In this document: piece by piece, positions 1-57,359 of the stretch | How positions within the stretch are numbered: position 1 is the stretch's first letter | How the letters are laid out: each line of letters begins with the position of its first letter | Source of the DNA: a virus | Strand: one strand, 5' to 3' | Virus record (IMG/VR): IMGVR_UViG_3300029134_000184 | DNA length: 64,000 nt | The notes under the pieces: model-generated | What the model was told of the DNA's origin: nothing | Seen by the model: the letters and a program-made list of their open reading frames with translations, nothing else | Databases searched by the model: none | Program-made: the position numbers and the translations under genes

Positions 1-15
1 AAGGAGATACACGAT

Positions 16-1485
16 ATGGCAAATTCCAACAGAAAGAAAACCCGCAAACTGCATGAAGCCAAACAGGCTAAGAAGGCTGAGGATACGAAAAAAGAGAAAT
101 CAGTCAGGAAGGCAAAGGCTGATATAGAAAAGCCGATAAAATATACAGTTACAGCAGAACAATTGGATGACGGAACCTTTAAGTTCAACGGCGGCAAAAG
201 CGTATTTAATATCACCATGCAGAAGAATAAAGCATTAGAGCCTTACGGAAAATGCATACATAATTACGGTGTCCTTTTAGAACTGATTCCTGGCGATAAG
301 CAGACTGCAATCAACCAGCAGATTGGGAATGCCAGGGTCGTGCATAATGATTACCTTTCCAAACGCATTGATTATTACAAAGAAAGCAAGGAGACCCTGA
401 CTGTCTCCAAATATAAAAAAGATTATCTCCCGGCATTAAAGGAAGAAAAGGAATATCTTAAGGATACGGATAAGTTTGTTTATGAAAACGCCTGCCGGAA
501 TGTAGATGACGCGTACAGCAGATTTTTTAAGGGGTTATCCGGATTTCCGAAGTATGCCTCCAAAACTAAACCGAACGGGAACAGTTTTACAACAAATTTC
601 ACGAACAACAACATTGAACTGAAAATGGTTGATGGAATTCCGCATGTCAAGCTTCCAAAAATCGGGTATGTCAGATTTATCCTTCCAAAAGGAAAGACGT
701 TAGCTGATATCCAGCCGCACGGAGTATCAATCAAAGCGGCAACCGTAAGCAGGGAGCCAAATGGTTCATACCGTATCTCACTCAGAATGGAGAGTGTGAT
801 TGATAAACCTGTATTTCCAACCGTTATCAATGCCCGGGAGATAATCTCTGTTGACCTTGGGTTGAAAGAATTTGGCGTTTTTGGAAACCTGGAAGAGTCA
901 ATCCCCGTACCGAACCCGAGATGGATTCAGGTCCATGCAAAGAGATTGCGGAGATTTCAGCAGAGCCTTTCAAGAAAGCAGTATGACCATAAGACACATG
1001 CCGGTTCAAAGAACTGGGAGAAAGCCAGGACTAAGGTCGCCAAAGAGCAGCGTAAGATTGCCGACCAGAGAAGGGATTTCCATCATAAACTTTCAAGAGC
1101 GATTACAGATAACTGTGTTTCTTTCATATGCGAAGACCTTGCGGTTAAGAACATGATGCAGAACCGCCATCTGTCAAAGTCAATCGCATCTGTTGGCTGG
1201 TCTCAATTTTTAACAATGGTACAGTATAAAATGGAGCGCGATGGTAAACATTTCAGAAAAATCAGCAGATGGTATCCGTCATCACAGACATGCGGCTGCT
1301 GCGGGTATAAAAATACAGATGTTAAGGATTTGGGCGTCCGGAAATGGATATGCCCGAAGTGCGGAACCTGGCATGACCGCGATATCAACGCTCAACAGAA
1401 TATATATAAGATTGGGGCAAAGATACTCCAGGACGAAGGGATACAGATTGTTGGTCTCCCTGTAACAAACAAATCTGCAAACTGA
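16..1485 (+). CDS. tnpB: TnpB (IS200/IS605-family OrfB) RuvC-like RNA-guided nuclease with an ~80-aa Lys/Glu-rich N-terminal extension
   Basis: RuvC-I SVDLGLKEFGVF, RuvC-II ICEDLAVKNM, zinc finger CGCCGY...CPKCG, RuvC-III DRDINAQQNI. The TnpB N-terminal fold starts near residue 82 (YGVLLELIPGDKQ). Residues 1-80 are an extra basic segment homologous to ORF 27617..27874. Confidence 0.85.
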   Translation: MANSNRKKTRKLHEAKQAKKAEDTKKEKSVRKAKADIEKPIKYTVTAEQLDDGTFKFNGGKSVFNITMQKNKALEPYGKCIHNYGVLLELIPGDKQTAINQQIGNARVVHNDYLSKRIDYYKESKETLTVSKYKKDYLPALKEEKEYLKDTDKFVYENACRNVDDAYSRFFKGLSGFPKYASKTKPNGNSFTTNFTNNNIELKMVDGIPHVKLPKIGYVRFILPKGKTLADIQPHGVSIKAATVSREPNGSYRISLRMESVIDKPVFPTVINAREIISVDLGLKEFGVFGNLEESIPVPNPRWIQVHAKRLRRFQQSLSRKQYDHKTHAGSKNWEKARTKVAKEQRKIADQRRDFHHKLSRAITDNCVSFICEDLAVKNMMQNRHLSKSIASVGWSQFLTMVQYKMERDGKHFRKISRWYPSSQTCGCCGYKNTDVKDLGVRKWICPKCGTWHDRDINAQQNIYKIGAKILQDEGIQIVGLPVTNKSAN

Positions 1486-1800
1486 TTCTTCAGAAATAAC
1501 TGTTAACCCAGCAACGGGTAAAACCGGTCACATGTAAACAAGCACTCCGGAAACGGAAATAACCAGATAACGAAGCAACGGTACCTCGGGGAAGCGTGGG
1601 AGCCGTGGTGAGAGTCCACTTAAAAAGCCTGCACTGCAGTAGGACTGTCAGCGTAAGGACACTGATAGAGAGTCTGAGTAAGACACGGCCGAAAGGCAAT
1701 GCATCGGACAGATGAAGCAGGAAAGAAAACAGAATGGAAGGTGTAACCGGGTCGCAAGACTAGAAAAGCCTGACAGACTGTCGGAAGCCCGTGGCTTCAG
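1486..1800 (+). ncRNA. candidate omega-RNA (reRNA) / right-end region of the TnpB element
   Basis: ORF-free, GC-richer stretch immediately 3' of tnpB with many short complementary segments. Placement matches where TnpB guide RNAs are encoded (established knowledge). No experimental or covariation support. Confidence 0.3.
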
Positions 1801-1853
1801 TCATGGGTTCTTCACTATAGACAAAAATGAAAGGGGGAAAAGACTTTCAAAAA

Positions 1854-3032
1854 ATGCAGAAAAAAAATAAATTTCCGCCAGGTTTTGCTGTTGCGGCAGT
1901 TGGTTTATCCGGCATACTGTTTATGACAGGATGCACAGGTGAGTATGACGTACTTGATAAAGTTGCTGACAGTACAACAGTTGGCGAAAGTATTACGGAT
2001 AAAATAAACGATATGGTCAGTGACCAGTCTCAGAACGTTACATATATATGTAAGCGAATGAAGACATTATCTGGAGAGGTTGAAACAGAAGAGGATGCCG
2101 AAAGGCCGGAGTATAATCCTGAAACATATGCTGATACCAGTAAAGCAGATATCAGTAAATTTAAAGCCAAAAAGATTTCTGTCTCTGATGATGAGGTTGA
2201 TGACTATATCAAATCATTGATGCGTGAAGCACGTATATATGGAGATGAGACCGATGCCATTGATGAGGAATGTATTGCCCATGTGGCATACGTAAAAACT
2301 GATACTGACACAAAAGAAGAAATCCAGAATCTGTCAAATATGGAATGGAGTTTTGATTCGAGCTTCTTCCCGGAAGAAGTAAGTAAAAAACTTATCGGAT
2401 GCAAAGTCGGAGACAACGTGAAAGTGAAGTGCTCTGGTTATGAATACGATATTACTGTAAATGACATTAACTCCGTAAACATAACAAATATGGCAGTATT
2501 TACACTGACAAGCGGGCAATACATGAATGCGTCAAATTACAGAACGTTTATCAAAAACTACCTGTACAACCAGAAAGTGTTGAGTGCAAATGAAGATTCC
2601 ATTGATAAGCTTTGCAAATCGGTTTCCGTAACCGGATATCCTGAAGATGTCTTGTCATACGACATTCAGCAGAAATTCATGTATTACTATCAACTGACCG
2701 GAGCCAACAGCCCGGATGATAAAACTTTTAAATCTTACATTAAGGATAATTTTGGATGTAAGACCACAAAAGAATTTACAACAAAGATTCAAAAAGAAGC
2801 AGAACAGAGCCTTGATGATGAAATAAAGATTCTGGCTCTTGCGAAAAAGTACAATTTATGGCTGGATGACGATAAACTGGCAGCAGAAGTTATGCAGAAT
2901 ACTACAGAATATTCCAGCGCAGAGGACTATTATGCGGCATGTTCAAAATCATATGCCAGATATTTTATATCAAAATTAAATCTTGCAAAGGAAATTCAGA
3001 AAAATGAAGAACGAATTGAGGGCGCCGGATAA
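1854..3032 (+). CDS. lipoprotein, unknown function
   Basis: N-terminal signal with lipobox LFMTGC. Start chosen at MQKKNK; the alternative ATG at 1827 has no RBS. Confidence 0.55.
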   Translation: MQKKNKFPPGFAVAAVGLSGILFMTGCTGEYDVLDKVADSTTVGESITDKINDMVSDQSQNVTYICKRMKTLSGEVETEEDAERPEYNPETYADTSKADISKFKAKKISVSDDEVDDYIKSLMREARIYGDETDAIDEECIAHVAYVKTDTDTKEEIQNLSNMEWSFDSSFFPEEVSKKLIGCKVGDNVKVKCSGYEYDITVNDINSVNITNMAVFTLTSGQYMNASNYRTFIKNYLYNQKVLSANEDSIDKLCKSVSVTGYPEDVLSYDIQQKFMYYYQLTGANSPDDKTFKSYIKDNFGCKTTKEFTTKIQKEAEQSLDDEIKILALAKKYNLWLDDDKLAAEVMQNTTEYSSAEDYYAACSKSYARYFISKLNLAKEIQKNEERIEGAG

Positions 3033-3810
3033 GCCATATTATCCTAAAAACACATTAAGGACATTACGAAAAACGGGTGTCCTAATTGATGAGCTTGAAG
3101 CAAGACGTGAGCATGAAGAACAGTTTAAACTCACGCCTTATGAAAAAGCAATGCATGACCAGCTAAGCGAGACCTTCAAAGTATCGCGCCCGGCAGAGGG
3201 AATAAAAAGCGCCCTTGAAGATGAGAGGGAGCTAAAATCAATTAGAAAAGAATATGTTACAGCATCAAAGATACAGCGAGACAGGACGGAGCTGAAAGAG
3301 AACGCAGACAATGACAGCCTTGGAATGGTACTCATTGCGGCGGGAACTCCGATGGTGCTTGTGGGTGTTACACTGCTTGAAACATTTATGGCTGCCGGAA
3401 TTGGTGTTATCGCAGCAGGTGCGGCGATGTATATGCCAATGTTTATAAGAGAAATAACCAAGAAAAGGAAAGCGAGAAAAAAATTAAAAAACATAACAGA
3501 AAATGTTGACGATTTGTCAGAGACTATTGACCGGAAAATGGCTAATATAGATAAAATCTGTTCTATGTATGGAATCCCTGTCAATTGTACTGACCGCGAG
3601 CAGTATCTCAGTTCTTTGTTTGATGCGGCAACCACATATGAGGCCCTGGAGAAAAAAGAGACTGATTATGAATTGCTCTGTCAGCTGAATAACAGTGGTA
3701 AGATAAAAAATCAGATTACTGAAAATCTTAAAGCTATGTCAGGGCTGACGGTTGTAGACGAAAACAACTTTGAAGATGTTTTAGACAAGCTGGCTTCACA
3801 GTTAAAATAA
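3004..3810 (+). CDS. hypothetical membrane protein
   Basis: ORF with two hydrophobic helices (VLIAAGTPMVLVGVTLL / GIGVIAAGAAMYMPMF). RBS AAGGA 10 nt upstream of MKNELRAPD. The 5' end overlaps the previous gene. Confidence 0.45.
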   Translation: MKNELRAPDKPYYPKNTLRTLRKTGVLIDELEARREHEEQFKLTPYEKAMHDQLSETFKVSRPAEGIKSALEDERELKSIRKEYVTASKIQRDRTELKENADNDSLGMVLIAAGTPMVLVGVTLLETFMAAGIGVIAAGAAMYMPMFIREITKKRKARKKLKNITENVDDLSETIDRKMANIDKICSMYGIPVNCTDREQYLSSLFDAATTYEALEKKETDYELLCQLNNSGKIKNQITENLKAMSGLTVVDENNFEDVLDKLASQLK

Positions 3811-3835
3811 AATAGAGAAAAGAGGAGATAAAAAA

Positions 3836-5152
3836 ATGATTAATACAATCAAACAGGCATTGACAACACGCGAAATCAGACGAAAGCTGGAGCTGATGGT
3901 GTTTGTCATCTTTATTACCCGAGTAATCTCAATGATTCCGGTTCCCGGAATAGATGCTTCCGTATTTAAACAGTGGATGGCAGTAAATTCCAATGATGCA
4001 CTAAACTTGTTCTCAGCATTCACCGGAGGCTCATTTGAGAATTTCTCGATGTTTGCTCTTGGTATCACCCCACTTATTACAGCGCAGATTGTAGTTCAGC
4101 TGCTCGGCAGCGTTATCCCGTCACTTGGCAAGCTTCAGAAAAAAGGCGAGCATGGACAGAAAGTGACAAAAAAAATTACAAATATTGTTGGTATCGTCCT
4201 TGCAATCGTTCAGAGCTGCTGCATGGCAATCGGCTTTAACAAAGGAGGCTTAATCAACGGAAACGGCGTTTTATGTGTTATCTTAATCACAACATTTATG
4301 ACAGCCGGAACAGGTATTATGATGTGGCTTGCGCATATCCTTGATGAAAAAGCAATCGGAAACGGTGTGTCAATCCTGCTGATGGCAAATATCTTGTCAA
4401 GAATGCCTGGACAGTTTGCATCACTTTTTAAATCACTTACGAAGGATAAAAGTACTCCAATTGCAGCACTGTCAATTACAGCAGCTATACTAATTTTTGC
4501 AGCTATCATTATTGTAATCATTTATATGACAGAAGGATATCACCCGCTGCATGTACAGTATTCACAGAAGATGAGTCAGTCTGGCGAAGACGCAGAAACC
4601 GGTCTTATCCCGGTAAAAGTTGGTATTTCTGGTGTTATGCCGGTAATCTTTGCTTCCTCTCTTATGGCAATTCCACAGCTGATTGCAGCTATCGCCGGAA
4701 AGGGATATGGAAGCGGGCTCAGTAAAATCGTTTTAAATATGATGTCCCAGAAGAACTGGTTTGATAACGACAACCCGGTCTATGGCTTAGGACTTCTGAT
4801 TTACCTGGCGCTGATTGTGTTCTTTGCATATTTCTACCTCCCGATTACATTCAATGCGGCAGAGGTATCTGATAACATCAGAAGAAGCGGAGGTTTCGTT
4901 CCGGGAATAAGAGCGGGCGAGGATACAGAACAGTACATCCAGTATATCTCAAGAAGACTTACTTCAATCGGTGTTGTGATGCTGATTTGTGTGACCGTAA
5001 TCCCGATTGTTATCTGCGGTGCACTTGGCCTTAATTCAACAATCGGCGGTACTTCACTGATTATCGTTATCGGTGTTATTACAGAAACAGTACAGCAGAT
5101 TCAGCTTGAACTTGCAGGAAGAAATTACTGCGGTATCTTATGCAGAGATTAA
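3836..5152 (+). CDS. secY: SecY preprotein translocase subunit homologue
   Basis: 438 aa with 10 predicted TM segments and SecY signature blocks (RVISMIPVPGID, FSMFALGITPLITAQIVVQLL, GEHGQKVTKKITNIVGIVLAIVQS). Strong RBS AGAGGAGATAAAAAAATG. Confidence 0.85.
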   Translation: MINTIKQALTTREIRRKLELMVFVIFITRVISMIPVPGIDASVFKQWMAVNSNDALNLFSAFTGGSFENFSMFALGITPLITAQIVVQLLGSVIPSLGKLQKKGEHGQKVTKKITNIVGIVLAIVQSCCMAIGFNKGGLINGNGVLCVILITTFMTAGTGIMMWLAHILDEKAIGNGVSILLMANILSRMPGQFASLFKSLTKDKSTPIAALSITAAILIFAAIIIVIIYMTEGYHPLHVQYSQKMSQSGEDAETGLIPVKVGISGVMPVIFASSLMAIPQLIAAIAGKGYGSGLSKIVLNMMSQKNWFDNDNPVYGLGLLIYLALIVFFAYFYLPITFNAAEVSDNIRRSGGFVPGIRAGEDTEQYIQYISRRLTSIGVVMLICVTVIPIVICGALGLNSTIGGTSLIIVIGVITETVQQIQLELAGRNYCGILCRD

Positions 5153-5164
5153 GGAGGGGTAGAA

Positions 5165-5401
5165 ATGGAAATAACAAAAGCTAAGAATTTTGACACGAAT
5201 GGTGTTGCAGAATTTGAAAGTGTTGACGAGGAGACACATGAAGTAACACCTGATATGAAATATATCAAATGGCCAAGCAAGAAAAAAGTCTTTTCTGAAT
5301 TGGTCTCTGTCGCAGTAGCATCCATTATTATTGCAATGGTTATTGCAGCCGGTGACAGTATCGGTATGACGATTGTAAATTTTGTTTTGAAATTCTTCTA
5401 A
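5165..5401 (+). CDS. secE: SecE-like translocase subunit
   Basis: 78 aa. C-terminal KYIKWPSKKKVFSELVSVAVASIIIAMVIAAGDSIGMTIVNFV aligns with the SecE core (B. subtilis KKVSWPKGKELTRYTITVISTVIFFVIFFALLD). Immediately downstream of secY with RBS AAGGAGGGG. Confidence 0.6.
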   Translation: MEITKAKNFDTNGVAEFESVDEETHEVTPDMKYIKWPSKKKVFSELVSVAVASIIIAMVIAAGDSIGMTIVNFVLKFF

Positions 5402-5414
5402 TGAAGAAAGTATT

Positions 5415-5447
5415 GCACCACGCGCGAAAGCGCGTGGTGCTTTTTTT
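5415..5447 (+). terminator. rho-independent terminator
   Basis: GCACCACGCGCGAAAGCGCGTGGTGC hairpin followed by TTTTTTT. Confidence 0.7.
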
Positions 5448-5536
5448 GTTGCCATTTTTTGTTATTACGGCTGCTCCAGCATATTAATTTATGTCAAAGA
5501 AATACTAACTATAACAACAGAAAGGAACTGGTGATA

Positions 5537-6340
5537 ATGGGAGAGAAACAACAGCCAAAATCTTGTATTTATCCAAAGCCTGAGCATTATAACGACCTGG
5601 CAGATAAGCCGATAACGAAAGATGGAATAATGGACAATGCCATTGAAATCATTTATATCTGTGCTTATAAAGCTGAAAGATTCGTCAACAAGCAATATGT
5701 GGGGGTGTCGGTTGAAAGCCGTGAAGACATCATCCAGTATGTAGCTGGCCAGATTAAGGATTTGATTGAAAACTATCTTGACAAAATTGACGAAAAAAGG
5801 GTTGATTTTTGGGCTTATATGAACAAAAGCATTCAGTATACCGCAAGCAGAGCTTATCAGACTGAAGTTAAAGATGGTGCGTCCGAATACATTCGGCACC
5901 GATACGACATGATGTCCAAATATCTCGATGAAGGGTTAACGCTGGAAGAGATTGCAGAGAAGTGTAACTGCAGGGTGTCTACGGTAAGGAAAACCCTTAG
6001 GGATGGAAAGGCAATAAATGTGAGTATCGACGCGGAGGACGATATCGGACATGCCATTCTTGATAAAGTAGGTAAAAATGATGTGTATAAGATTGAAGAA
6101 GAGGAAAAAGTATCAATCGAAGATAACATCTTAATCCGAAAGGTTCTTAAAGGTATGACAAGGGAAGAAAAGTTCATTATAGAAACTTACCTTAATATCA
6201 AAAAGGACTGTGAAAAAGAATGGAAAGACAGAACGTTTGCAGCTTGTAAGGAGTATGGCATTACTCATAAAAAAGTGAATGATGCAATCAGAAGCTTTAA
6301 AAATGAGGCCAGAAAAATGCGTAATGAGCCTTCTGGATAA
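5537..6340 (+). CDS. putative sigma-70-family (region 2/region 4) transcription factor
   Basis: C-terminal HTH LTLEEIAEKCNCRVSTVRKTL resembles sigma region 4. An upstream helical region resembles region 2. Preceded by the element-specific promoter motif at ~5476. Confidence 0.4.
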   Translation: MGEKQQPKSCIYPKPEHYNDLADKPITKDGIMDNAIEIIYICAYKAERFVNKQYVGVSVESREDIIQYVAGQIKDLIENYLDKIDEKRVDFWAYMNKSIQYTASRAYQTEVKDGASEYIRHRYDMMSKYLDEGLTLEEIAEKCNCRVSTVRKTLRDGKAINVSIDAEDDIGHAILDKVGKNDVYKIEEEEKVSIEDNILIRKVLKGMTREEKFIIETYLNIKKDCEKEWKDRTFAACKEYGITHKKVNDAIRSFKNEARKMRNEPSG

Positions 6341-6461
6341 TACAAGGTTTTGGCTTGTACAAAAACCTATAACAACACATGAGCAGCGGGGAAAACCTGC
6401 TGTTTATTTTTTGCCTGATTTTGCATATTGAAAACAAATACAAAAACAGGAGGGAAAAATA

Positions 6462-7514
6462 ATGAAAAATTTAAAAAAATCTGTTTTATGCATGCTAATG
6501 GCAGTTGTCATGGTGATGACTGTAACAGCTGCAAGCGTCATTCCGGTTCAGGATGTGTATGCGGCATCTGTGAAGCTGAATAAGACTTCACTTAACCTGT
6601 ACACGAGGACTATGATTCAGCTTACTGTATTAAATACAGGAGCAAAAGCCAAATGGTCATCAAGCAAACCGAAGGTTGCAAGCGTGACAAGTGAAGGTTA
6701 TGTCACTGCCCGCTCTGCAGGAAAAGCAAAGATTACCGCAGTTGTTGGCAAAAAAAAGCTGTACTGCAATGTCACCGTCAATGTTAAACCTGGCGAAGAA
6801 GTGAAGATGGAGTTTAAAGATTGTAAAGTTCAGGTTGGAAAAACTACACGTCTCCGCCTGATGAACATTGTCGGCCTCGCTTCATGGAAAAGTAGCAATA
6901 CAAAAATTGCTACTGTAGACGCGAATGGAGATGTAACAGGAAGAAAAACCGGTTCTGCGACAATCACTGCTACATATCACTGCAAAAGATATACTGCAAA
7001 AGTGACTGTTATATCCGGTACAACGTCTGGAACGTCAGTTATCAGAAGGAAAGCTCCTTTGGCTGACAGCGGTGTGCTGAATGCGTTTGACAAGCTTGGC
7101 TTTAAATATGCTTATGACCCGAATATTACTGGGTTCACAGGCAAATTTTCAGCAAAAGAGCATCGCATCATTGTAAGACGCGAAGAAGATGACTGTATCT
7201 ATCATGAGCTTGGTCATTTTGTAGCATGGGTAGCTGGCGATGTTGACTACAAGAAAGAATGGAAAGCGATTTATGACAAAGAGAAAAGCAAAGTTACATA
7301 TTTCAATAAAGGTTATGCAACACAAAATCCTAAGGAATATTTCGCAGATGCATATAAGGATTATATCCTGCATCGTTCTTCACTGTCTTCAACAAGACCT
7401 TTGACATACAAGTATGTTAAGGCTGCAGTCTCAAAAGTCAATGCAATGACGAGTACTAACTTTGAAAGAATGCATAAGCTGTATGACTCTATGTGGAATA
7501 AATATGGTGCTTAA
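6462..7514 (+). CDS. secreted protein: signal peptide, two Big_2 Ig-like domains, C-terminal HExxH zinc metalloprotease (anthrax lethal factor / PPEP-like)
   Basis: Signal peptide MKNLKKSVLCMLMAVVMVMTVTAASV. Two repeats of the Big_2 pattern (KPKVASVTSEGYVTARSAGKAKITA..). YHELGHFVAW plus downstream EYFADAY is typical of the ATLF-like family. Confidence 0.7.
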   Translation: MKNLKKSVLCMLMAVVMVMTVTAASVIPVQDVYAASVKLNKTSLNLYTRTMIQLTVLNTGAKAKWSSSKPKVASVTSEGYVTARSAGKAKITAVVGKKKLYCNVTVNVKPGEEVKMEFKDCKVQVGKTTRLRLMNIVGLASWKSSNTKIATVDANGDVTGRKTGSATITATYHCKRYTAKVTVISGTTSGTSVIRRKAPLADSGVLNAFDKLGFKYAYDPNITGFTGKFSAKEHRIIVRREEDDCIYHELGHFVAWVAGDVDYKKEWKAIYDKEKSKVTYFNKGYATQNPKEYFADAYKDYILHRSSLSSTRPLTYKYVKAAVSKVNAMTSTNFERMHKLYDSMWNKYGA

Positions 7515-7608
7515 ATTTCTTCAGCAGGCTTCGGCCTGCTTTTTTCGTTTTTGGAAAATTTAGCATATTAAATACGTAAATGTTAAAACCAAGAAAGGAG
7601 ATTTTCAA

Positions 7609-8580
7609 ATGAAGATTAAAGAAATCAAAACAAACGGAATTGGAACTGTTGAGGGTGTTGTCATTGCTTTAGAAGAAAAGGCAAATAAAAATAACAGCAG
7701 CTTTATCAACATGACTGTCAGTGATGGCGAAACTCAGGTTGTCGCCAAGGTATGGAACGCAGACCTTGAAACGTTTAAATTTAAAACAGGGCAGGCGGTT
7801 CTTGTGGAATTAAAAATGGAGGAGTATAAAGGACAGAAAAGTTATGTCGCCCGTGAAATTACGGCATCTTCTGCTGACCCGGCACTGTTTATCTGCGGCG
7901 CTCCGGTAAAATCAGAAGAGATGTATAACTTCCTCTATAAAACCGCTGGAAGATGCGGCGTGTATGCGTCAACGGTCAAGAAGATTCTTGATGACAATAA
8001 AGACCATCTGATGTTCTGGGGCGCTGGCAAAGCAGTGCATCATAATATCAGAGGCGGTCTTTTATATCATACATACCGTATGACAAAAACGGCGGCATAT
8101 ATCACCTCTGTATATAACAAAGAGCCGTCAATGCTGAAAGGCTGTCGTGACATCAACACAGAACTTCTTGTTGCCGGCTGTATCCTGCATGACATCGGAA
8201 AACTTTGGGAGCTTGATACAAATGAATTTGGTGCTTCAGATTATACCGTGAAGGGAAACCTGATGGGGCATTCATTTATTGGCGCCGAGCTTGCGGGCAA
8301 GACCGCCAGAGAGCTTGGTGTAGATGAGGAAAATGTGATGCTTCTGCAGCATGTAATCCTGTCTCATCATGGAAAATATGAATGGGGTGCTGTCACCCTT
8401 CCGGCAATCCCGGAAGCTATGATTTTGCATCATATTGATATGATTGATGCCGATATGTATCAGTTTGAATCACAGGCAGAAGCCTTAAAACCAGGTGAAG
8501 CGACAAGCAATCTGATTTTTGGCTTAGACCAGAAAGTTTATAGACCGACATGGAGGGTTCCGGTGGAAGAAAAGAAGTAA
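7609..8580 (+). CDS. yhaM: YhaM-like 3'-5' exoribonuclease (N-terminal OB fold + HD phosphohydrolase domain)
   Basis: OB-fold N-terminus, then the HD motif (ILHDIGK ... LSHHGKYEWG ... HHIDMIDA). Confidence 0.7.
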   Translation: MKIKEIKTNGIGTVEGVVIALEEKANKNNSSFINMTVSDGETQVVAKVWNADLETFKFKTGQAVLVELKMEEYKGQKSYVAREITASSADPALFICGAPVKSEEMYNFLYKTAGRCGVYASTVKKILDDNKDHLMFWGAGKAVHHNIRGGLLYHTYRMTKTAAYITSVYNKEPSMLKGCRDINTELLVAGCILHDIGKLWELDTNEFGASDYTVKGNLMGHSFIGAELAGKTARELGVDEENVMLLQHVILSHHGKYEWGAVTLPAIPEAMILHHIDMIDADMYQFESQAEALKPGEATSNLIFGLDQKVYRPTWRVPVEEKK

Positions 8581-8628
8581 GGTGTTTGTTTAACTTTAGA
8601 TTTTTTTTCGGATTTTATTTTTGTATTG

Positions 8629-8654
8629 CCCGCAGCGAATGCTGCGGGTTTTTT
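8629..8654 (+). terminator. rho-independent terminator
   Basis: CCCGCAGCGAATGCTGCGGG + TTTTTT. Confidence 0.6.
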
Positions 8655-8742
8655 ATGATAGCAAGCGTGAATCCTCGGTAATTAAAAAGGTAATGGATGC
8701 CGGCAGGATTGCCGAGAATAAAAAAAGCAAAAAGAGCAGGAA

Positions 8743-8778
8743 AATGATTTCCTGCTCTGTGTTTTTTTGTCTTGCAAT
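8743..8778. terminator. bidirectional terminator between convergent genes
   Basis: AGAGCAGGAAAATGATTTCCTGCTCT hairpin flanked by A-run upstream and T-run downstream. Confidence 0.55.
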
Positions 8779-8793
8779 TTCGATATTCAGTTT

Positions 8794-9635
8794 TTAGTTT
8801 GATTCTTTTTTGGAATCGATTTCGGATTTGATTTCTTTAACGTACGCTTCGTTCAGCTCAGTCTCTTTTGCAATTTCTTCGACTGATAAACCATGATTAA
8901 GTAATATGCCAATATACTTTAAATCTGCTTCACGCCTAGTCTCTTCTAGCATTGAATACATCTTATCCACTCCTTTCGGGTTAAATTTGTAGTATCTTAA
9001 TGCTTCAGCGAAAACTGGATTTTTAATGTCATCAGGGTTTGGGTTAGTCCAATCTCTGATAAACTGTCCAAGTTCTGAATTATCAGTTTCAGCTGCAAGG
9101 TTTACAATAATTTCTTCTTCACCTGATTCAACAGTATTGCCAGACATTAAGTCTACTTTTTTAATATGCTGAATCATTGGGTCTTTGGAATTAAAATCCT
9201 TTTCTGTTAAGACTATCATACACCTTTTTGGTATTTCTGAGAAGTCTTGCCCTACTTTTAAGCTGTCTGTATCAATCATAGAACCATAATAACGGTTTCT
9301 GTAATAAATATTTTTTTGCCAATAACATTGTGGCTCAATGATATATATAGTATTTTCCTCGGGGCAATATGCAATAAAGTCTATAACGATATTGCGTCCA
9401 CCATTCCAATTCTTTACGGAATATTGGACTTTAATAAGCTCCAGGTGAACTTTTGCTTTCTTCTTTTTACCTTTATTGATTGCATTACGAACAATATTAA
9501 TGATTTCTTCTGCAACCTCCTCTTTCTTTAATACCATGCTGGACATGATGTCCGCATTTAATGACAATGCCATTAATTTTTCTTGAAAATCTTGAGGATA
9601 TTTTCCTCCTTTCATGGATATTTTTTCTTTTTCCA
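8794..9635 (-). CDS. Rpn/YhgA-like PD-(D/E)XK nuclease (transposase_31 / TIGR01784 family)
   Basis: N-terminal KGGKYPQDF. Core D..E.Q pattern (NIVIDFIAY ... IYIIEPQCYWQK) typical of the Rpn/YhgA-like family. Start set at MEKEKISMKGG with RBS AAAGAGGAG. One of only three - strand genes. Confidence 0.5.
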
Positions 9636-9839
9636 TTTGCTTTTTCGCTCCTCTTTTTATATATTTTTTTGCAAAAAAAAGGAGATAAACATAATATGAT
9701 ATGCAAGACAAACTATCATTCTGAATCTCCTTTCTTTATCTTTTTTTGCATATTTAATATGATATTTTTGATGATTCTGAAAAACTAAACTATTTTGCAT
9801 ATTGTATTTAATAAATACAAAACGACAGGAGGCAAAAAT

Positions 9840-10154
9840 ATGTACAAAGGAAAAGAAAATTATGAAACCGTTAAACACCTGATGGCAGGCGAAGAATGTA
9901 TTGTAACCGGATATGGCCAGTCCATGACTCCAATTCTGAAATCTGGGCAGTCCGTAAGATGTATTCCAGTGACTGAAAAAACAGCGCTGAAGAAAAACGA
10001 TATAGTGCTGTGCAAGGTTGCAGGACATTTTTACCTGCATAAGATTTCTGCAATAAAGGGTGGAAAGACATTTCAGATTTCTAACAATCACGGACATGTA
10101 AACGGATGGATTGGAAAGAAGTGTATATACGGTTTGGTAGTTGAAAAATTTTGA
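9840..10154 (+). CDS. S24-family (LexA/UmuD-like) peptidase domain protein
   Basis: GQSMTPIL motif (Ser nucleophile). Downstream Lys in HKISAIKGGK. Phage promoter motif TTGCATATTGTATTT at ~9797. RBS GGAGG. Confidence 0.5.
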   Translation: MYKGKENYETVKHLMAGEECIVTGYGQSMTPILKSGQSVRCIPVTEKTALKKNDIVLCKVAGHFYLHKISAIKGGKTFQISNNHGHVNGWIGKKCIYGLVVEKF

Positions 10155-10308
10155 GATTTTGCAGGAGCGAAGGCTCCTTTTTTTGTGGTTTTTTTAATAT
10201 TTTTTTTGTTTTTTGTGGTTTTTATCGAGAAATTGTTTTTGCATATTAAAAGTGTTAATTAAATTAAAATCTTGTATGCCGGCTTACCGGCAAGAAAGGA
10301 TGGATAAC

Positions 10309-10677
10309 ATGAAAAAAATTACAAACAAGAAATACGAAGCAATCATTCAGGCAAAGAACATCATTTCACAGTTATGCGAGGATGGAGCAATGGATTATGT
10401 TGAGAGTGGTGTTGACGTTGTTCGTAATACCTGTCTGATGAAGGCTCCGGCCTTATTGAAGGAAGCTCTGTTAACAGTGCTGACATCCGGAACTATTAGC
10501 GATAATGGTTTTCAGATGCCTGCTACAGCGTGCTGCTGCGAAAATTTCGCAGTAGTCCGGAAGCAGATGAAGAGGCATTCCCTGAGCCTTCTGGTCTGCG
10601 ACCCACTGGATAAAAGAGCAGACGAAGACGGGTATTTCACAATGCCAGTCTTTGGACAGGTCTTTATTGAGAAATGA
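10309..10677 (+). CDS. hypothetical protein
   Basis: ORF with RBS AAAGGA. Cys-rich C-terminal half. No recognisable family. Confidence 0.45.
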   Translation: MKKITNKKYEAIIQAKNIISQLCEDGAMDYVESGVDVVRNTCLMKAPALLKEALLTVLTSGTISDNGFQMPATACCCENFAVVRKQMKRHSLSLLVCDPLDKRADEDGYFTMPVFGQVFIEK

Positions 10678-10896
10678 TTTTTTGGCCTTCAGAGCAATCT
10701 GGAGGCTTTTTTATCGTGATTTATTTTTTGCATACTATAAATAACAAAACTTATATCTGATAAAGAACGGAAAAAACATGGTTGAAATTTTCGTTCTATT
10801 CCCCTTGCAGCGAAAACTGGGGCGCTGATTTTTTGATAGATTAACTTCCTCTTTTCAGTTCTGCCAAGCAGAACGATGACATAATTTCCTCCTATT

Positions 10897-10930
10897 AAAA
10901 AAACAGACATCTTTGATGTCTGTTTTTTTG
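10897..10930. terminator. bidirectional rho-independent terminator
   Basis: AAAAAAACAGACATCTTTGATGTCTGTTTTTTT. Confidence 0.7.
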
Positions 10931-10932
10931 TT

Positions 10933-11865
10933 CTAATTCTTTAAACTATTCTGAACCCTTTTAACATAAGCAGCTATATGCGGGGCTGTCTGCTCAAGAC
11001 CGTCCGGGTCTTCCAAGCTTAACCTGAAAGCCTCTGCAAAATATTCTGCATTATTGCATATATTCTCATCTTCCAAGTCGTATTTCTGTTGTAAGGCTGT
11101 TGCCTCCGATTCGTGTGATTGGGTGACTACGTTAGAGTCAGAACGCCCGGTAGCTGATACCTGGAAATCTACCGCATGTCCGAGCTCGTGGTAGATGGTA
11201 TCTTTAAGGCTTACGGCATCACATCTGAGATACATTTTCCTTTCATCAATTCCTCCTCCAGATTGTATGTATGTCAGGCCATTGACAACCATTCCTTCAT
11301 CCATGTCAGCGGTTGACTCACCTTCCAGATAAGCGGCGGGATTGTTGCACATACAGATTTCATAACTTTGTAAAATCTGAATGTATTGGTCATCAAGCGT
11401 ATTGAAGATATCTGTGGCAAGTCCGATATACAGATTGCATGCATCGGTTTCACCAAAGATGTTGAAATTGTATTTCTGCGTTTTGCACAAATACCCATTG
11501 TATACGTATCCGAGATTCGTGTAAGACCATTCATCTCCATCATTTCCAAGTATGCTTATTGATTCGCCCTTTTTGTATGTTCCGACAATCGGGCTGTTCG
11601 CATCGGCTGACTGATGGATGTTGAGGTCAGTGACCGTGTAACAGATACCCTCCGGCGGGTCTGGCTTTGTGTTGTAAAGCGATAGGTCTTCAACCGGTGC
11701 GGGCGTTTGTTCGGTTGTCTGTTCCGGTGCTGCCGGCTGCTCCTCAACTATCTGCTGCCCGGAGTCTGAAATTCTCAGGTCTGGCAGGTCTGCCGTTGCA
11801 AATGCCGGTATATTAGTTGTTAAAATTGCTGCTGTTAAAGCAGCAAGTGTAAGTATCTTTTTCAT
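10933..11865 (-). CDS. secreted HExxH zinc metalloprotease (anthrax lethal factor / Pro-Pro endopeptidase-like)
   Basis: Signal peptide MKKILTLAALTAAILTTNIPAFA. TIYHELGHAVDF ... NAEYFAEAF. Paralogue of the C-terminal domain of 6462..7514. RBS AAAAGGAGG. Confidence 0.7.
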   Translation of the reverse strand: MKKILTLAALTAAILTTNIPAFATADLPDLRISDSGQQIVEEQPAAPEQTTEQTPAPVEDLSLYNTKPDPPEGICYTVTDLNIHQSADANSPIVGTYKKGESISILGNDGDEWSYTNLGYVYNGYLCKTQKYNFNIFGETDACNLYIGLATDIFNTLDDQYIQILQSYEICMCNNPAAYLEGESTADMDEGMVVNGLTYIQSGGGIDERKMYLRCDAVSLKDTIYHELGHAVDFQVSATGRSDSNVVTQSHESEATALQQKYDLEDENICNNAEYFAEAFRLSLEDPDGLEQTAPHIAAYVKRVQNSLKN

Positions 11866-11966
11866 TTCTTTCCTCCTTTTGCTGCATATACAATATGCAA
11901 AAAATCCGCAAAAATTTGACAATTTTAAAAACGGCTGTTAAATTAAAAGAAAAAGGAGGTAAGAAT

Positions 11967-12419
11967 ATGTGTCGTGCCGTTTCGTATAATGCAGATGCCT
12001 GCTGCAGAAAGCTATATTCATCTTACAGCTCCGCAAATACACCGAGAAGAGCAAAAATAAGCCTTAAAGAAAGCCATATAATGATTCGCGCCCTGCAGGT
12101 AAAAATAGCAAGAAAAGAAGACAAAAAATATTCCCTTGATGAAAAGGTCGTGCCGTTCATCGGGTTTGAGGAAGCAGAGTTTGTGAAATCCATGAAAAGG
12201 TCAAAGATAGATAAAAAAATAGTTTTGGAGGCAAGAAAAAAAAGTACAAAAAATGAAGAGATAAAAAGGTTATGCTCCGCCTTGACAAAACTGCAGAATC
12301 AGCCTGATTGCAGTTATGAATTATGTACGGCATTGTATGATGCCCGGCTGATGATGGGGTCGCTGCAGAGAAGACTGAAAGATGATGAAGATAAAGATGA
12401 AGATATACCGTTTAACTAG
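11967..12419 (+). CDS. hypothetical protein
   Basis: ORF with RBS AAAGGAGG. Basic N-terminus, acidic C-terminus. Confidence 0.45.
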   Translation: MCRAVSYNADACCRKLYSSYSSANTPRRAKISLKESHIMIRALQVKIARKEDKKYSLDEKVVPFIGFEEAEFVKSMKRSKIDKKIVLEARKKSTKNEEIKRLCSALTKLQNQPDCSYELCTALYDARLMMGSLQRRLKDDEDKDEDIPFN

Positions 12420-12496
12420 GCGCCGGATTTTCCGGCGTTATTTTTTTTGCAAAAATCCGGCATATTGGAAGTGTAAAAATTTTTTGAGAAATTTGC

Positions 12497-12660
12497 CGTC
12501 GCATCCTTGTGACTTTGATAACTCATCGGCTACGCCGAATTCGTTACCAGATTTCAATAGTCATGAGTTAGACGGCTCTGCTTTTTAAATACATAAAAAT
12601 ATCGTTTATGCTTGCTCTGGTAACGAGTCGGCAACGGCGAGTTATCACGACGTTTTATTT
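12497..12660. repeat. intergenic long imperfect hairpin element (copy A of a repeat family)
   Basis: Left arm GATAACTCATCGGCTACGCCGAATTCGTTACC pairs with right arm GGTAACGAGTCGGCAACGGCGAGTTATC. The ~95-bp core is repeated at 39357..39446 with 3 mismatches. Related arms at 26765..26830 and 42368..42400. Confidence 0.5.
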
Positions 12661-12740
12661 CTCTACATTTCGGTGTAGAGAAATTTTTTATTTTCACAAA
12701 TTTTTTTTTGCAAAAAACCGTCCCATTCCTAATTTTTTCA

Positions 12741-12755
12741 GCATATTAAATATGC
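12741..12755 (+). promoter_or_regulatory. element-specific promoter motif (perfect palindrome GCATATTAAATATGC)
   Basis: One of >45 copies of GCATATTRWATRT located 25-45 nt upstream of start codons. Confidence 0.5.
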
Positions 12756-12797
12756 AAGAAATTTAAATACAAATTTTTACAAAAGGAGGTGTCTTGT

Positions 12798-14168
12798 ATG
12801 GAAATCACTTCAAGTTATCAAATAGAAATCTTATCAAATACGGATATGAAAAACACAGTGCAGATTTACCGCAAGGCACTTGCTTTTGTTATCGATGTAT
12901 GTGATAAAGAATGGGGAAACATTTCTGTTCTCGGTGGCACAAAAGAAAAAGACCACTATGTGGAGAAATTAATCCATCCAACCAAAAGCAATCCAAACCC
13001 TAAATATCCATTTGATATCAAGGGGTCAGAGTTTTATAAATTTCCATCATATCTCAAAAGAGCGGTTATTGCTGAAGCAATCGGTGCTGTAAGCAGCTAC
13101 CACAGTAATTATAAGAACTGGGAAGATAATGGAAAGAAGGGAAAGGCTCCAGCGTTACAGGTAGACAGGCATGCAATGCCGGTGTTCTACAACCAGAACA
13201 TGTACAAGGAAGACGCACCTAAAAATGCCAAATATCCAAAAGACATGAATCCAGGCGACAGCAATATCAGATGGTTAAAGTTATATCAGAATAACGACTG
13301 GGTGTGGGTTCCTGTCAGATTAAGAAAAACTGATATTAATTATATCAATAAATACTGGGGAGCATGTGAAGATAAAAGCGCCCCGGCCTTAGAAAAAATA
13401 CATAACAAATACTACCTGAGATTTTCTTTTACGGAAACCGTAATTTTAAGCGATACACCTATTGCAGAACAGATTATCTGTGCAGTAGACCTTGGAATCA
13501 ATACGGACGCAGTATGCAGCATAATGAAAGCAGATGGAACTATCCTTGCAAGAAAGTTTATCGATTTTACAAGTGACAAAGACCGGATGATTCATGCTAT
13601 GAACAGAACACGCCGTAAGCAGTCCAAGTATGGGCCAAAAAGTGCCAAAAGCCTTTGGGCTTATGTAAAACGCTTAAACGAAGACCGTGCAAAGAAAATA
13701 TCAGCGGCAATCGTAGAATTTGCATCCCAGCATTCCGTAGATGCTATCGTAATGGAGCATCTGGACTTCAAGGGATGCAAGAAACGGGGCAGTAAGGCGC
13801 AGAGATTGTCTATGTGGAATCACGGAATCATCCGTGAGAAGGTAGAGCAAAAAGCGCACCTCCTCGGTATAAGGATTGCGACAATCTGTGCATGGAAAAC
13901 AAGCGCTCTTGCTTTTGATGGAAGTGGAAGCGTTGCCAGAGATGATAATAACCATGCACTTGCAGCGTTCACGACAGGTAAACAGTATAACTGCGACCTG
14001 AGCGCCAGCTACAATATCGGCGCCAGATATTTTATCCGTGAACTCCTTAAATCTCTTCCGGCGACGGAAGAGTCCCGCGTAAAGGCAAAAGTTCCTGACG
14101 CTGGGCGTAGAACCTCCTGTACATTATCAACACTGCGGGCGCTTGTAAAAGAGCTTTCCGCAGCATAG
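12798..14168 (+). CDS. TnpB-like RuvC nuclease with degenerate (cysteine-less) zinc-finger region
   Basis: RuvC-I ICAVDLGINTDAV, RuvC-II AIVMEHLDFKG, RuvC-III YNCDLSASYNIGARYF. The TSQTCxxCG zinc-finger position reads TSALAFDGSG with no Cys pairs. Confidence 0.7.
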   Translation: MEITSSYQIEILSNTDMKNTVQIYRKALAFVIDVCDKEWGNISVLGGTKEKDHYVEKLIHPTKSNPNPKYPFDIKGSEFYKFPSYLKRAVIAEAIGAVSSYHSNYKNWEDNGKKGKAPALQVDRHAMPVFYNQNMYKEDAPKNAKYPKDMNPGDSNIRWLKLYQNNDWVWVPVRLRKTDINYINKYWGACEDKSAPALEKIHNKYYLRFSFTETVILSDTPIAEQIICAVDLGINTDAVCSIMKADGTILARKFIDFTSDKDRMIHAMNRTRRKQSKYGPKSAKSLWAYVKRLNEDRAKKISAAIVEFASQHSVDAIVMEHLDFKGCKKRGSKAQRLSMWNHGIIREKVEQKAHLLGIRIATICAWKTSALAFDGSGSVARDDNNHALAAFTTGKQYNCDLSASYNIGARYFIRELLKSLPATEESRVKAKVPDAGRRTSCTLSTLRALVKELSAA

Positions 14169-14375: not shown

Positions 14376-14379
14376 GAAA

Positions 14380-26997: not shown

Positions 26998-27486
26998 ATG
27001 AGTCTTAAGAACGAAAAATACAAAAACAAATTGGAAAACGGAAGAAAAAAGAAATTCGGAAAAGAATTTGCTGAGATTCCGAAAGGCAAGCATTATGTGG
27101 AGGAATTGGAGCCGCTGCTTGGTGCGGCGGTGGATTTGGAGTGCGACGACTGGGTGTTTATTCCAGGAGAGCTTGGCGGTATGCCGTGCGAGAAGCTGCT
27201 GTTGAAATCTGTGAAGCTGGTCAAGTGTCCGACAAGCAGAGAAATTGAATACCCGGTGAAAATCTCAAAGAAAATCTGGACGGCTGTGGATGCTGATTTC
27301 AGGGAACGCCTTGGACTGGAAGGAGAGAAGGAAAAATATAAATCCGGTATCCATGGAAGGACTCCGATTCATGCGCGCGGAATTGTGTATGAACACAAGG
27401 TCTTTATTGATGGGATAAATGGCAAATTTGTAAAAAAAAATATTGGGTTTCAATGCTTTTCCATGTGGAAAGTTGGAGACAGGTAG
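26998..27486 (+). CDS. hypothetical protein
   Basis: ORF with RBS AAAGGAGA. Phage promoter variant at ~26955. Confidence 0.45.
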   Translation: MSLKNEKYKNKLENGRKKKFGKEFAEIPKGKHYVEELEPLLGAAVDLECDDWVFIPGELGGMPCEKLLLKSVKLVKCPTSREIEYPVKISKKIWTAVDADFRERLGLEGEKEKYKSGIHGRTPIHARGIVYEHKVFIDGINGKFVKKNIGFQCFSMWKVGDR

Positions 27487-27616
27487 GAGCAGACGCCGGC
27501 GAAGCCGGCGGCTGCCTTTTTTGTAAAAAGAAAAAAAAGGCTCTAAAAAACGACAAAAAAGAAAAATATTCGGCATATTAAAAGTATAAGAAATTTACAG
27601 AAAGGAGATGTACGAT

Positions 27617-27874
27617 ATGGCAAACTCAAACAGGAAGAAAGCCCGTAAATTACAGGCAGCCAAGAAAGCGAACGCCGCCGAAAGAGAGAAGGCTGCTAAG
27701 AAGGTAAAGCCTGCCGAAGAAAAACCGATAAAGTACACTATCACAGCAGAACAACAGGCTGACGGTACTTTTGAGTTTCACGGAGGCAAAGGCGGATTCA
27801 ATATCATTAAGCAGAAGAATAAAGCATTAGAGCCTTACGGAAAACATTATGTGATTTTGGTGTTGGCAGTATGA
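27617..27874 (+). CDS. small Lys-rich protein homologous to the N-terminal extension of TnpB (16..1485); possibly a truncated remnant
   Basis: ~75% nt identity with bases 1-250 of the window, including a 33-nt identical block CAGAAGAATAAAGCATTAGAGCCTTACGGAAAA right where homology ends. Own phage promoter motif at ~27578 and RBS AAAGGAG. Confidence 0.5.
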   Translation: MANSNRKKARKLQAAKKANAAEREKAAKKVKPAEEKPIKYTITAEQQADGTFEFHGGKGGFNIIKQKNKALEPYGKHYVILVLAV

Positions 27875-28020
27875 CTTGGGAAGGTCAGGATTATTTAGAA
27901 TCAGTTAGAGATAATACAAGATGGGGAAAAATAAAAAAGATAGCAAAGGAAAAAGGACTTCCTTTAATGTTTGATACAGTTATCGACATTTCAAAAAATC
28001 TTATTATAGCAGCATTGTAA
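27871..28020 (+). pseudogene. C-terminal fragment of a DUF2513-like gene
   Basis: MTWEGQDYLESV.. matches the LTWDGQNYYESE region of the neighbouring full-length gene 28075..28350. No N-terminal half. Confidence 0.35.
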
Positions 28021-56086: not shown

Positions 56087-56395
56087 ATGAAAAAGACAAT
56101 GTATTCTGCAATGAAAAACCTAGCGGAATATATTGCTGCAAGCCAGTCGTCTGACTTTGATGGAATATGGGATGAATGGAGCAGCAAATATAAACCGGAA
56201 GATTATATGGAATTACCGCTTAGGAAAATGGGAATGCAGTTATGTCAAATAGACAAAGCTGAGATAAAGAGTGTGCCAGAAAGAAGCTATAGAGACACAA
56301 TTAAAAAGACGTTAAAACCTGGAATTAATAAGGAGGAGTTCGAAAATGAGCGAGAAGAATACTTCAAATCAGCAAGATACGACGAAGCAGAATGA
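56087..56395 (+). CDS. hypothetical protein
   Basis: Two promoter motifs upstream (56020, 56032). RBS AAGGAGG. Confidence 0.45.
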   Translation: MKKTMYSAMKNLAEYIAASQSSDFDGIWDEWSSKYKPEDYMELPLRKMGMQLCQIDKAEIKSVPERSYRDTIKKTLKPGINKEEFENEREEYFKSARYDEAE

Positions 56396-57359
56396 AAAAT
56401 ATGATGTTGTATATAATAAAAATTCAGGATACAGCCAGAGCGAAGTTACGAAACTGATAAAAATATATCATATGGCGATGGCAGCCGGAGATAATGTAAC
56501 CGTGCAGGATGCTTATACAAAAATATACTTTTTTATTGCAAAGTATGTATATAAAACACTGTGGGGCAATTACCATACATTAATGCAGAACAAGTACCAC
56601 CGTGAAGATATAGTCCAGGACGTGTGGGTAAAAATTTTTAATGAGCTGAAAAACTTTGACCCGGACAAGGGTGCCCTCACTACTTTTATTACTCCGTGGA
56701 TAAAGCACGTTGTGTCAGATTATGCAAGCAAAAACTTCAGAAAGACTTCAGTTTATTATGCGAATGCTATGACGAAGATAAATGGAGCCCAGAACTATTG
56801 CAAACAGTATGGTTTAAATTCAGATGATATTGAGACAATCATGAGTCTGACAGGATTGTCAGAAGCGACAGTAAAAAATACTCTTGATATTATGTCTAAA
56901 AAAGACAGCGTCTCATATGAAGCCTTAATTGATGCCGGTGCTGATTATGTTACACAGATTAAAGGGCCTGAGGAGTCAGTAATTGAAGCAGAATCAGAAC
57001 GTAACCTTGGGGAGCTTCTCAGGGATGTGTTAACTGATGAAGAACTGCAATTGTTATCACTACTGCTTAATCCGGAAAACGCAAACAAAAAGCATTCAAG
57101 CTACCGTGAAATCGCTGAACAGATTCCGGGAAGTAATATTCCTAAAATCAAGAGAAAGATTTCAAGGATAACTACAAAACTTAAAAACAATGAAAGATTT
57201 GCCCAGATGTATCCATACATTATCGCGCAGGAAAAAGCGCTTGAGGATAATTATATTCCAGTGCTGGATGATACAGATGAGGTTGATGAAATGTATGAAA
57301 ATTTTGACGATATTGATGTAAATGATGGCTGGAGCAAGGCAAAAAAGAAAAAGAAATAA
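56346..57359 (+). CDS. sigma-70-family factor (region 2 and region 4)
   Basis: DIVQDVWVKIFNELKNFDPDKGALTTFITPWIKHVVSDYASKNFRK (region 2-like). Region-4-like HTH SYREIAEQIPGSNIPKIKRKISRITTKLK. Confidence 0.55.
   Translation: MSEKNTSNQQDTTKQNEKYDVVYNKNSGYSQSEVTKLIKIYHMAMAAGDNVTVQDAYTKIYFFIAKYVYKTLWGNYHTLMQNKYHREDIVQDVWVKIFNELKNFDPDKGALTTFITPWIKHVVSDYASKNFRKTSVYYANAMTKINGAQNYCKQYGLNSDDIETIMSLTGLSEATVKNTLDIMSKKDSVSYEALIDAGADYVTQIKGPEESVIEAESERNLGELLRDVLTDEELQLLSLLLNPENANKKHSSYREIAEQIPGSNIPKIKRKISRITTKLKNNERFAQMYPYIIAQEKALEDNYIPVLDDTDEVDEMYENFDDIDVNDGWSKAKKKKK

Follow-up and report, generated by a model that had tools for sequence, protein, structure and literature searches.

TnpB of ISDra2, an insertion sequence (IS) of Deinococcus radiodurans, is the prototype RNA-guided nuclease of IS200/IS605 elements (PDB 8h1j, 8exa). 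Its target motif is TTGAT, and in both structures the first strand of the WED domain adjoins the RNA scaffold and the target-adjacent motif. Here we analyse a tnpB gene, together with a small open reading frame (ORF) that resembles its 5′ end, in a stretch of 64,000 nucleotides (nt) held as IMG/VR virus record IMGVR_UViG_3300029134_000184 (hereafter the window). The encoded protein is like ISDra2 TnpB in the order of its WED, REC, RuvC and zinc-finger regions and can be aligned with it over residues 78-465; likewise, the element shares with ISDra2 a structured 3′ RNA that runs to the right end, with a variable flank beyond it, as well as a target motif of the TTGA type in the left flank. In contrast to ISDra2, the protein begins with 79 additional residues (a Lys-rich tail and then a conserved module of 42 residues), the 3′ non-coding RNA is longer (~330 nt past the stop codon), the element in the window has no tnpA gene, and the host is a gut Firmicute.

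Elements of the IS1341 type, which encode only TnpB, provide a second comparison. As in these, a single tnpB ORF lies between hairpin-bearing ends, and copies occur in many contexts and several times per genome; unlike them, the element described here has a long left end (~206 nt) with a second hairpin and a promoter-like motif, and this type of left end is common to elements encoding unrelated TnpB-like proteins of 459 and 551 amino acids (aa). The accretion of extra segments is a general trend among the TnpB descendants Fanzor and Cas12 (PMC10691335), and N-terminal extensions of Fanzor have been discussed (PMC11832414). The present protein shares with these the addition of segments to a TnpB core; however, it is a bacterial TnpB borne on a transposon with intact ends, and its extension has no detectable similarity to their additions. 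The analysis presented below makes it very probable that positions 16..1815 of the window are a TnpB-only IS whose nuclease carries a lineage-specific extension maintained by selection, and that the small ORF at 27617..27874 is the remnant of a sister copy.

The intact TnpB has 489 aa (coordinates of this and other features are collected in Table 1) and matches the Pfam families PF01385, PF07282 and PF12323 (OrfB_IS605, Cas12f1-like TNB and HTH_OrfB_IS605, respectively). Besides the WED/REC/RuvC/zinc-finger architecture it has the catalytic D-E-D triad, with RuvC motif residues D280 (SVDLG, starting at 278), E373 (CEDL, 372) and D454/D456 (HDRDIN, 453), and a CxxC...CxxC zinc finger spans residues 426-450; the catalytic residues are intact. 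The protein has a public database entry, WP_227218723.1 from Blautia wexlerae, where it is annotated as "transposase". The alignment with ISDra2 TnpB (phmmer against solved structures, E 1.4e-66) covers residues 1-372 of that chain, matches in phage records start only from residues 82-99 (tblastn), and a Foldseek search with a model of residues 1-190 returned the REC region of ISDra2 TnpB as its sole match. Residues 1-79 therefore constitute an extension ahead of the canonical TnpB N-terminus. An earlier note on this DNA had placed the start of the TnpB fold at about residue 82, in agreement with the canonical alignment (from 78-81 for ISDra2) and with the phage matches. Translation starts from the ATG at position 16, and the canonical N-terminus lacks a conserved start codon: the lone start-like in-frame codon near residue 80 is M68, and most copies have K at that position.

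The extension is a regular part of one gut-bacterial TnpB subfamily, occurring in essentially all of its full-length members. A full-length query retrieved 1,279 proteins at E <= 1e-10; among the best 120 clusters, 119 were 486-493 aa long and one was 466 aa, most of them with 100% query coverage and 87-99% identity. An extension profile run over metagenome contigs identified 80 loci, every one from human-gut assemblies. The 75 metagenomic loci that were tabulated mostly contained ORFs of 474-491 aa starting MANSN..., and about 50 full-length metagenomic copies carry the extension. When the 85-residue segment was used as query, only short proteins (48-146 aa) were returned, and likewise with a profile of the divergent extensions; these results arose because of an artefact of candidate collection and do not reflect biology. 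The view that full-length fusions are rare was rejected, since hundreds of fused proteins were obtained with the full-length query and were confirmed in the metagenome scan.

An independent family of small genes was also sought. The extension profile was run against 1.84 billion representative proteins and gave 33 hits with no independent homologue among them: the hits were fragments of the same TnpB clade, except for two large surface repeat proteins. These two were regarded as spurious, the matches falling within P-domain (P_proprotein) or InlB-type (Flg_new_2) repeats. The short forms that were inspected proved to be truncated copies bearing the upstream sequence of the element, and no free-standing homologues were found beyond those derived from tnpB 5′ ends. 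In the remaining collections, a scan of reference genomes with over-specific patterns yielded one irrelevant Chloroflexia locus, a scan of viral contigs yielded one locus, megablast of window positions 1-6000 against a phage collection yielded nothing, a phage protein search returned only TnpBs of <60% identity that aligned from residue 82 on, and a plasmid collection held no match to window positions 1-20000 or to the extension. The earlier note had called such an extension unusual, which holds by comparison with characterised TnpBs and not within the protein's own clade.

The two parts of the extension differ in their conservation. The Lys-rich tail varies in length among copies, with total protein length ranging from 474 to 491 aa, and it is missing from the most divergent lineages (e.g. 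P0182, P0191, P0221). The module contains positions that are invariant across lineages sharing just 37-60% identity (consensus xTaeQ..DGTFxFxG....I..QKNKALEPyGK), and in P0168, P0173, P0182, P0191 and P0221 (37-60% identical) it is followed by the normal TnpB start, YG.vLeL.P..Q..iNQQIGNAR.V.N.YL (WED/REC). It is predicted to form a beta-hairpin (residues 46-49 and 55-58) and then a helix (66-77), with predicted local distance difference test (pLDDT) scores of 67-80. For 150 pairs of full-length copies, the mean ratio of nonsynonymous to synonymous substitution rates (dN/dS) was 0.24 in the Lys-rich tail, 0.10 in the 42-residue module and 0.07 in the TnpB core, and the extension is under purifying selection. 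It sits directly before the first WED strand, the counterpart of which in ISDra2 adjoins RNA and target; most likely, the extension would act as an added nucleic-acid-binding arm that helps the protein to keep hold of its long RNA scaffold or its DNA target.

Hairpin ends, a sharp right end, a structured 3′ RNA, a TTGA(A) flank and occurrence in many contexts together argue that the element is a TnpB-only insertion sequence of the IS200/IS605 type. The contexts of full-length copies form at least 26 clusters upstream and at least 26 downstream, two copies lie on one contig in the pairs L063/L077 and L028/L093, and a copy that is 98.6% identical to that of the window (L027) has the same upstream context and another right flank; such multiple copies in differing contexts indicate mobility. 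The right end reads ...CCCGTG(A/G)CTTCAGTCATGGGTTCTTCA(C/T) in 57 of 57 elements, the terminus being TTCTTCA(C/T) at window position 1815, and beyond it the sequences diverge completely, with 39 distinct 16-nt flanks among the 57. Homology among contexts places the left end ~206 nt upstream of the ATG; on the strength of this multi-locus comparison, position 27569, upstream of the small ORF, was rejected as a left end. Of the 22 places listed, nearly all have a left flank ending in TTGA(A) and one has GTGA instead, consistent with insertion 3′ of a short target motif, although no empty site was recovered.

Subterminal imperfect hairpins are found at both ends of the element. The left-end hairpin, GCCGTCGCATTCTCGTGACTTCAGTCGTGAGTTAGACGGC, has a core that resembles that of the right-end hairpin, the former consisting of CTCGTGAC-TTCA-GTCGTGAG and the latter of CCCGTGGC-TTCA-GTCATGGG, and the stems show compensatory variants. 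As read from the listed ends, the hairpins have the same orientation and are not inverted repeats, and the right flanks do not begin with TTGA. The same left-end architecture is present in divergent lineages (L020, L023). The window opens 15 nt before the ATG, such that the left end of its own copy lies outside; the upstream sequence that the earlier note had proposed to examine for a promoter and left end was supplied by L109, a locus encoding an identical protein, in which an HD-domain gene and then a 297-aa gene are followed by a left end with a variant hairpin.

From stop codon to right end the elements have 329-331 nt, a region more strongly conserved than the coding sequence (CDS): over positions 1484-1900 the window and L002 do not differ, whereas the two proteins are only 88-89% identical. 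RNAalifold predicted a multi-hairpin fold for the 3′ region, with 90 pairs of which 14 show compensatory changes, consistent with a structured RNA that extends as far as the right end, past which the flank varies. An Rfam scan gave no family match to this RNA, and Rfam and tRNA scans of the window were empty. By analogy with other TnpB elements, the 3′ RNA is probably an omega RNA and the flank past 1815 its guide. Within the window, the TnpB gene and its 3′ region do not recur, apart from the match of the 5′ part to 27602-27844.

The small ORF was originally listed as 27608..27874 (88 aa); the start homologous to that of TnpB is the ATG at 27617, which gives a protein of 85 aa and has AAGGAG upstream of it, spaced as in the TnpB gene. 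The shared 5′ segment reported in the earlier note is real, window positions 1-252 and 27602-27844 being 75.8% identical (blastn, E 8.9e-47) and the extension and the small ORF 67% identical over 79 residues (tblastn, E 1.7e-24). The uninterrupted identical block that had been described between the two loci is likewise present and ends at the breakpoint, but its length is 34 nt and not 33. Full-length copies far closer to the small ORF than the window TnpB were found: 27569-27844 is 92.4% identical over 276 nt to the 5′ end of a 486-aa variant in L002, and codons 1-76 are 100% nucleotide-identical to the full-length copy L047. Homology to full-length elements begins at 27569, or slightly further upstream when the comparison is with the L097 type, and the left-end hairpin, which belongs to the distal left end, is missing.

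At the other side, element homology ends after GGAAAA at 27845. From CATTATGT on, a match to a 98-aa DUF2513 paralogue in L019 (NNTLCNFGVGNMTWKGQDY...) begins, and the junction shows only 1 nt of microhomology. The C-terminal residues of the small ORF, HYVILVLAV followed by the stop, are DUF2513 sequence read in another frame; the ORF 27871..28020 matches positions 70-99 of 100 of DUF2513 (PF10711) and is a 3′ fragment, not a full-length match to the ~100-residue profile. A pairing of HYVILVL with HNYGVLL as continued homology was rejected because these residues are out-of-frame DUF2513. In L059, a homologue of the 162-aa gene at 26998..27486 is followed by an intact 481-aa TnpB gene with its 3′ RNA, an arrangement that represents the undeleted state of the same locus. 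The identity with L047, the intact copy in L059 and the DUF2513 junction together argue that the small ORF is the 5′ remnant (stump) of a second TnpB copy from a sister lineage and not a member of an independent gene family, which was one of the two origins entertained in the earlier note.

The stump junction was also found joined to other 5′ parts of the element. Loci L106, L107 and L108 have the identical junction behind complete left ends, and their extension sequences differ by 20-25%. L106 (contig k99_8670, from another sample) is 99.9% identical to the upstream context, the left end and the first 237 coding nt of the window copy and then passes into the stump junction; it fits the product expected if the full copy at 16 had undergone homologous recombination with the stump at 27617. 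Recombination of this type would delete 27.6 kb, including the genes for SecY, NrdD and RtcB and ~20 further genes. A 322-nt unit comprising 27574-27895 is 100% identical in loci with differing flanks, and the downstream differences among stump loci are explained by shuffling of tandem DUF2513 paralogues and by insertions of other elements. In the 90% cluster of the stump protein, which has 223 members, the 15 listed are all 85 or 88 aa long; they have an invariant C-terminus and differ only where full-length copies vary too, a pattern that would fit gene conversion.

The same observations bear on an unlikely alternative, in which the stump was co-opted to serve as a gene of its own and the isolated module, with its short hydrophobic tail, might be a regulator or dominant-negative competitor of the resident TnpB complexes. 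The break lies at residue 1 of canonical TnpB, so that the ORF is exactly the extension, and it is intact, together with its promoter-like motif and ribosome-binding site. In addition, the exact 85-aa protein was found in 834 blocks of the collection (802 contigs were counted), including RHT08597.1 of Ruminococcus sp. AM36-17, the cluster described above is large with an invariant tail among its listed members, and an identical junction is kept in several genomic arrangements; it is possible that the stump keeps a function. However, the unit is 100% nucleotide-identical across contexts and hence offers no signal of selection, its variation mirrors that of full-length copies as expected from gene conversion rather than independent evolution, and its tail is out-of-frame DUF2513. 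Moreover, other 5′ stumps of the clade (P0173, P0191, P0003, P0023, P0025) break elsewhere, and the abundance of the protein may just mirror that of the host genomes. For the wider proposal, that the module and the Lys-rich tail are a new nucleic-acid-binding addition to TnpB, one that alters how the enzyme grips its long omega RNA or target DNA, and that the abundant 85-aa stump is retained to interfere with or tune resident TnpBs, we likewise see only a small chance.

It is very unlikely that codons 75-83 form an element acting at the nucleotide level (a hot spot for recombination or cleavage, or an RNA signal) at which the stump junction arises repeatedly. Synonymous variation at these codons is 0.064 against a typical value of ~0.18, the lowest in the CDS outside the overlap with the 3′ RNA, and the same junction is found on four different combinations of left end and extension variants. 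However, the junction together with at least 50 nt of DUF2513 sequence is identical everywhere, which argues for one event followed by recombination, and recombination of the stump with a full copy accounts exactly for L106. Divergent lineages do vary codons 75-83 synonymously, the site has no TTGA target motif, and the other stumps listed above break elsewhere.

A host origin of residues 1-79, through in-frame insertion of a TnpB element into a paralogue of some independent small host gene or through recombination between the two, is hardly credible: the sharp junction between extension and core, with the 34-nt identical block ending right there, would suit such an event, but the left end lies ~206 nt upstream of the ATG and the extension therefore travels inside the transposable unit to at least 26 contexts, the 1.84 billion representative proteins hold no independent homologue, and the small ORF consists of 76 codons equal to the 5′ end of L047 with DUF2513 sequence downstream. 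This fusion was the other origin entertained in the earlier note, which had named as findings that would speak against it a regular occurrence of the segment throughout the subfamily and a decayed copy at 27617; both were found. The idea of a fusion that prompted the analysis is thus unsupported and the elements are otherwise of a known kind, although a description of the module was not found in published surveys.

Several observations weigh against our interpretation of a selected, lineage-specific extension and a sister-copy remnant. With respect to the extension, Pfam and PDB sequence searches and Foldseek found no relative of the module, and AlphaFold performed poorly, with a mean pLDDT of 47 for the full-length protein and of 67 for residues 1-190; a fold search with the full-length model was dropped on account of its score. 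With respect to the remnant, the breakpoint lies within one codon of the boundary between extension and core, for which the chance is ~1% if breakpoints are random; we favour coincidence over the retention of a complete module. The stump protein is also strikingly abundant for a remnant, with its promoter and ribosome-binding site intact, and L106 could in principle be an assembly chimera, but the shared repeat is just 34 nt and the assembly used k=99. With respect to mobility, no Y1 transposase Pfam family was present among the called genes of the examined loci, the host genomes not having been searched, and the element would have to be mobilised in trans by a Y1 TnpA, as we infer by analogy. 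Finally, the left-end hairpin of L109 is a variant (CTCAGTAATTCAATTGCTGAG) unlike its right-end hairpin, and for this reason the window copy may not be mobile.

According to the interpretation that we prefer, the IS body at 16..1815 would be non-autonomous and common in human-gut Blautia/Ruminococcus-like genomes. The extension would be an integral and selected part of its RNA-guided nuclease, with a variable Lys-rich tail preceding the 42-residue module, and as an arm ahead of the first WED strand it could steady binding to target DNA or to an RNA scaffold of unusual length. The second copy would have lost all but its promoter, ribosome-binding site and codons 1-76 through a deletion, with illegitimate joining to the 3′ part of a DUF2513 gene. 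This remnant would still recombine with full-length copies, whereby its 5′ part is patched from other copies and deletion variants are generated, such as the 27.6-kb deletion between positions 16 and 27617.

TnpB nucleases are under development as very small genome editors, and natural additions show which of their surfaces tolerate, or benefit from, added segments. Here a conserved and selected module without known relative fronts an otherwise ISDra2-like enzyme, in an element that seems to be active and at high copy number in a common human-gut bacterium. The small ORF also illustrates that IS remnants can pass for small genes, and that they may act as recombination substrates giving rise to large deletion variants in gut bacterial genomes.

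Table 1. Features of the N-extended tnpB element and of the stump locus (positions in the window).
Feature	Position	Strand	Evidence or remarks
tnpB	16..1485	+	Pfam, phmmer against ISDra2, RuvC motifs, zinc finger; left end and promoter upstream of position 1
Lys/Ala/Glu-rich tail, residues 1-37	16..126	+	14 K+R, 5 D+E; low-confidence predicted helix
42-residue module, residues 38-79	127..252	+	DGTFxF motif, invariant QKNKALEPYGK
34-nt identical run	219..252 = 27811-27844	+	Ends at the stump breakpoint and at the extension/core boundary
Putative omega RNA scaffold	1386..1815	+	tnpB 3′ end plus ~330 nt non-coding; right-end hairpin CCCGTGGCTTCAGTCATGGG, then TTCTTCAC
Right flank, putative guide position	1816..1835	+	Analogy with other TnpB elements
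Promoter-like motif TTCGGCATATTAAA (27569-27582) and ribosome-binding site	27569..27616	+	Retained by the decayed copy
Codons 1-76 of a second tnpB copy, probable 5′ stump	27617..27845	+	Equivalent to window TnpB residues 1-79
3′ part of a DUF2513 paralogue	27846..28020	+	Joined to the stump; own frame is the 49-aa ORF 27871..28020

Further elements with related ends were observed. A second IS200/IS605-like element occupies 12480-14370, and its left end shares ~90% identity with the left end of the N-extended TnpB element. Its TnpB-like ORF of 459 aa (12789..14168) hits phrog_506 'transposase' and has RuvC-like motifs, no CxxC zinc finger and no Pfam hit, and a right-end-like hairpin is found at 14340-14357. 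TnpB-like genes of 551 aa (L014 4297-6330, L019 1940-3595; Pfam TNB only) have the left-end type of the window copy, and that of L014 is inserted within the DUF2513 fragment directly after the stump. In the window, the ORF 27871-28020 lies in tandem with a 91-aa gene (28075-28350) whose match to DUF2513 is confined to positions 1-80 and whose C-terminus is aberrant; in related loci, DUF2513 paralogues are rearranged in many combinations, and the DUF2513 region seems to be a hot spot for elements of the TnpB-like kind. Stumps also occur in more divergent N-extended TnpB genes: the 5′ stumps L020 3501-4249 and L023 3501-3950 have kept the complete left-end hairpin and lie in ordinary bacterial chromosomal surroundings, beside an ABC sugar transporter and beside a CAP-domain gene, respectively.

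A mini-repeat of ~30-40 nt, GGTAACGA-N-GAGTTATCA, occurs four times in the window against 0 expected, at 12516-12548(-), 12619-12647(+), 26775-26802(-) and 39419-39447(+). Two of the copies are inserted in the left-end sequence 12480-12765; elsewhere the repeat immediately precedes certain tnpB copies (L080, L082), and some database ORFs (P0015, P0035) read through it. Positions 39340-39447 hold a partial copy of the left end, with a shortened hairpin region and one mini-repeat, after which no nuclease gene follows. The promoter-like motif TTC(A/G)GCATATTAAA has 24 sites in the window against 3.7 expected (e.g. 7559, 12737, 15628, 27569, 34067, 50884), nearly always on the + strand and upstream of ORFs, and is carried by the tnpB elements too; a sigma-factor-like protein is encoded at 56346..57359.

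Almost all genes of the window lie on the + strand, and among its products are FtsH, RtcB and BspA-type leucine-rich repeat proteins; the replicon could be a chromosome, a large phage or a plasmid. A SecY homologue of 438 aa is encoded at 3836-5152 among genes without known function and not in a ribosomal-protein operon. An intein bearing a LAGLIDADG endonuclease domain interrupts NrdD, the anaerobic ribonucleotide reductase encoded at 15826-19284.

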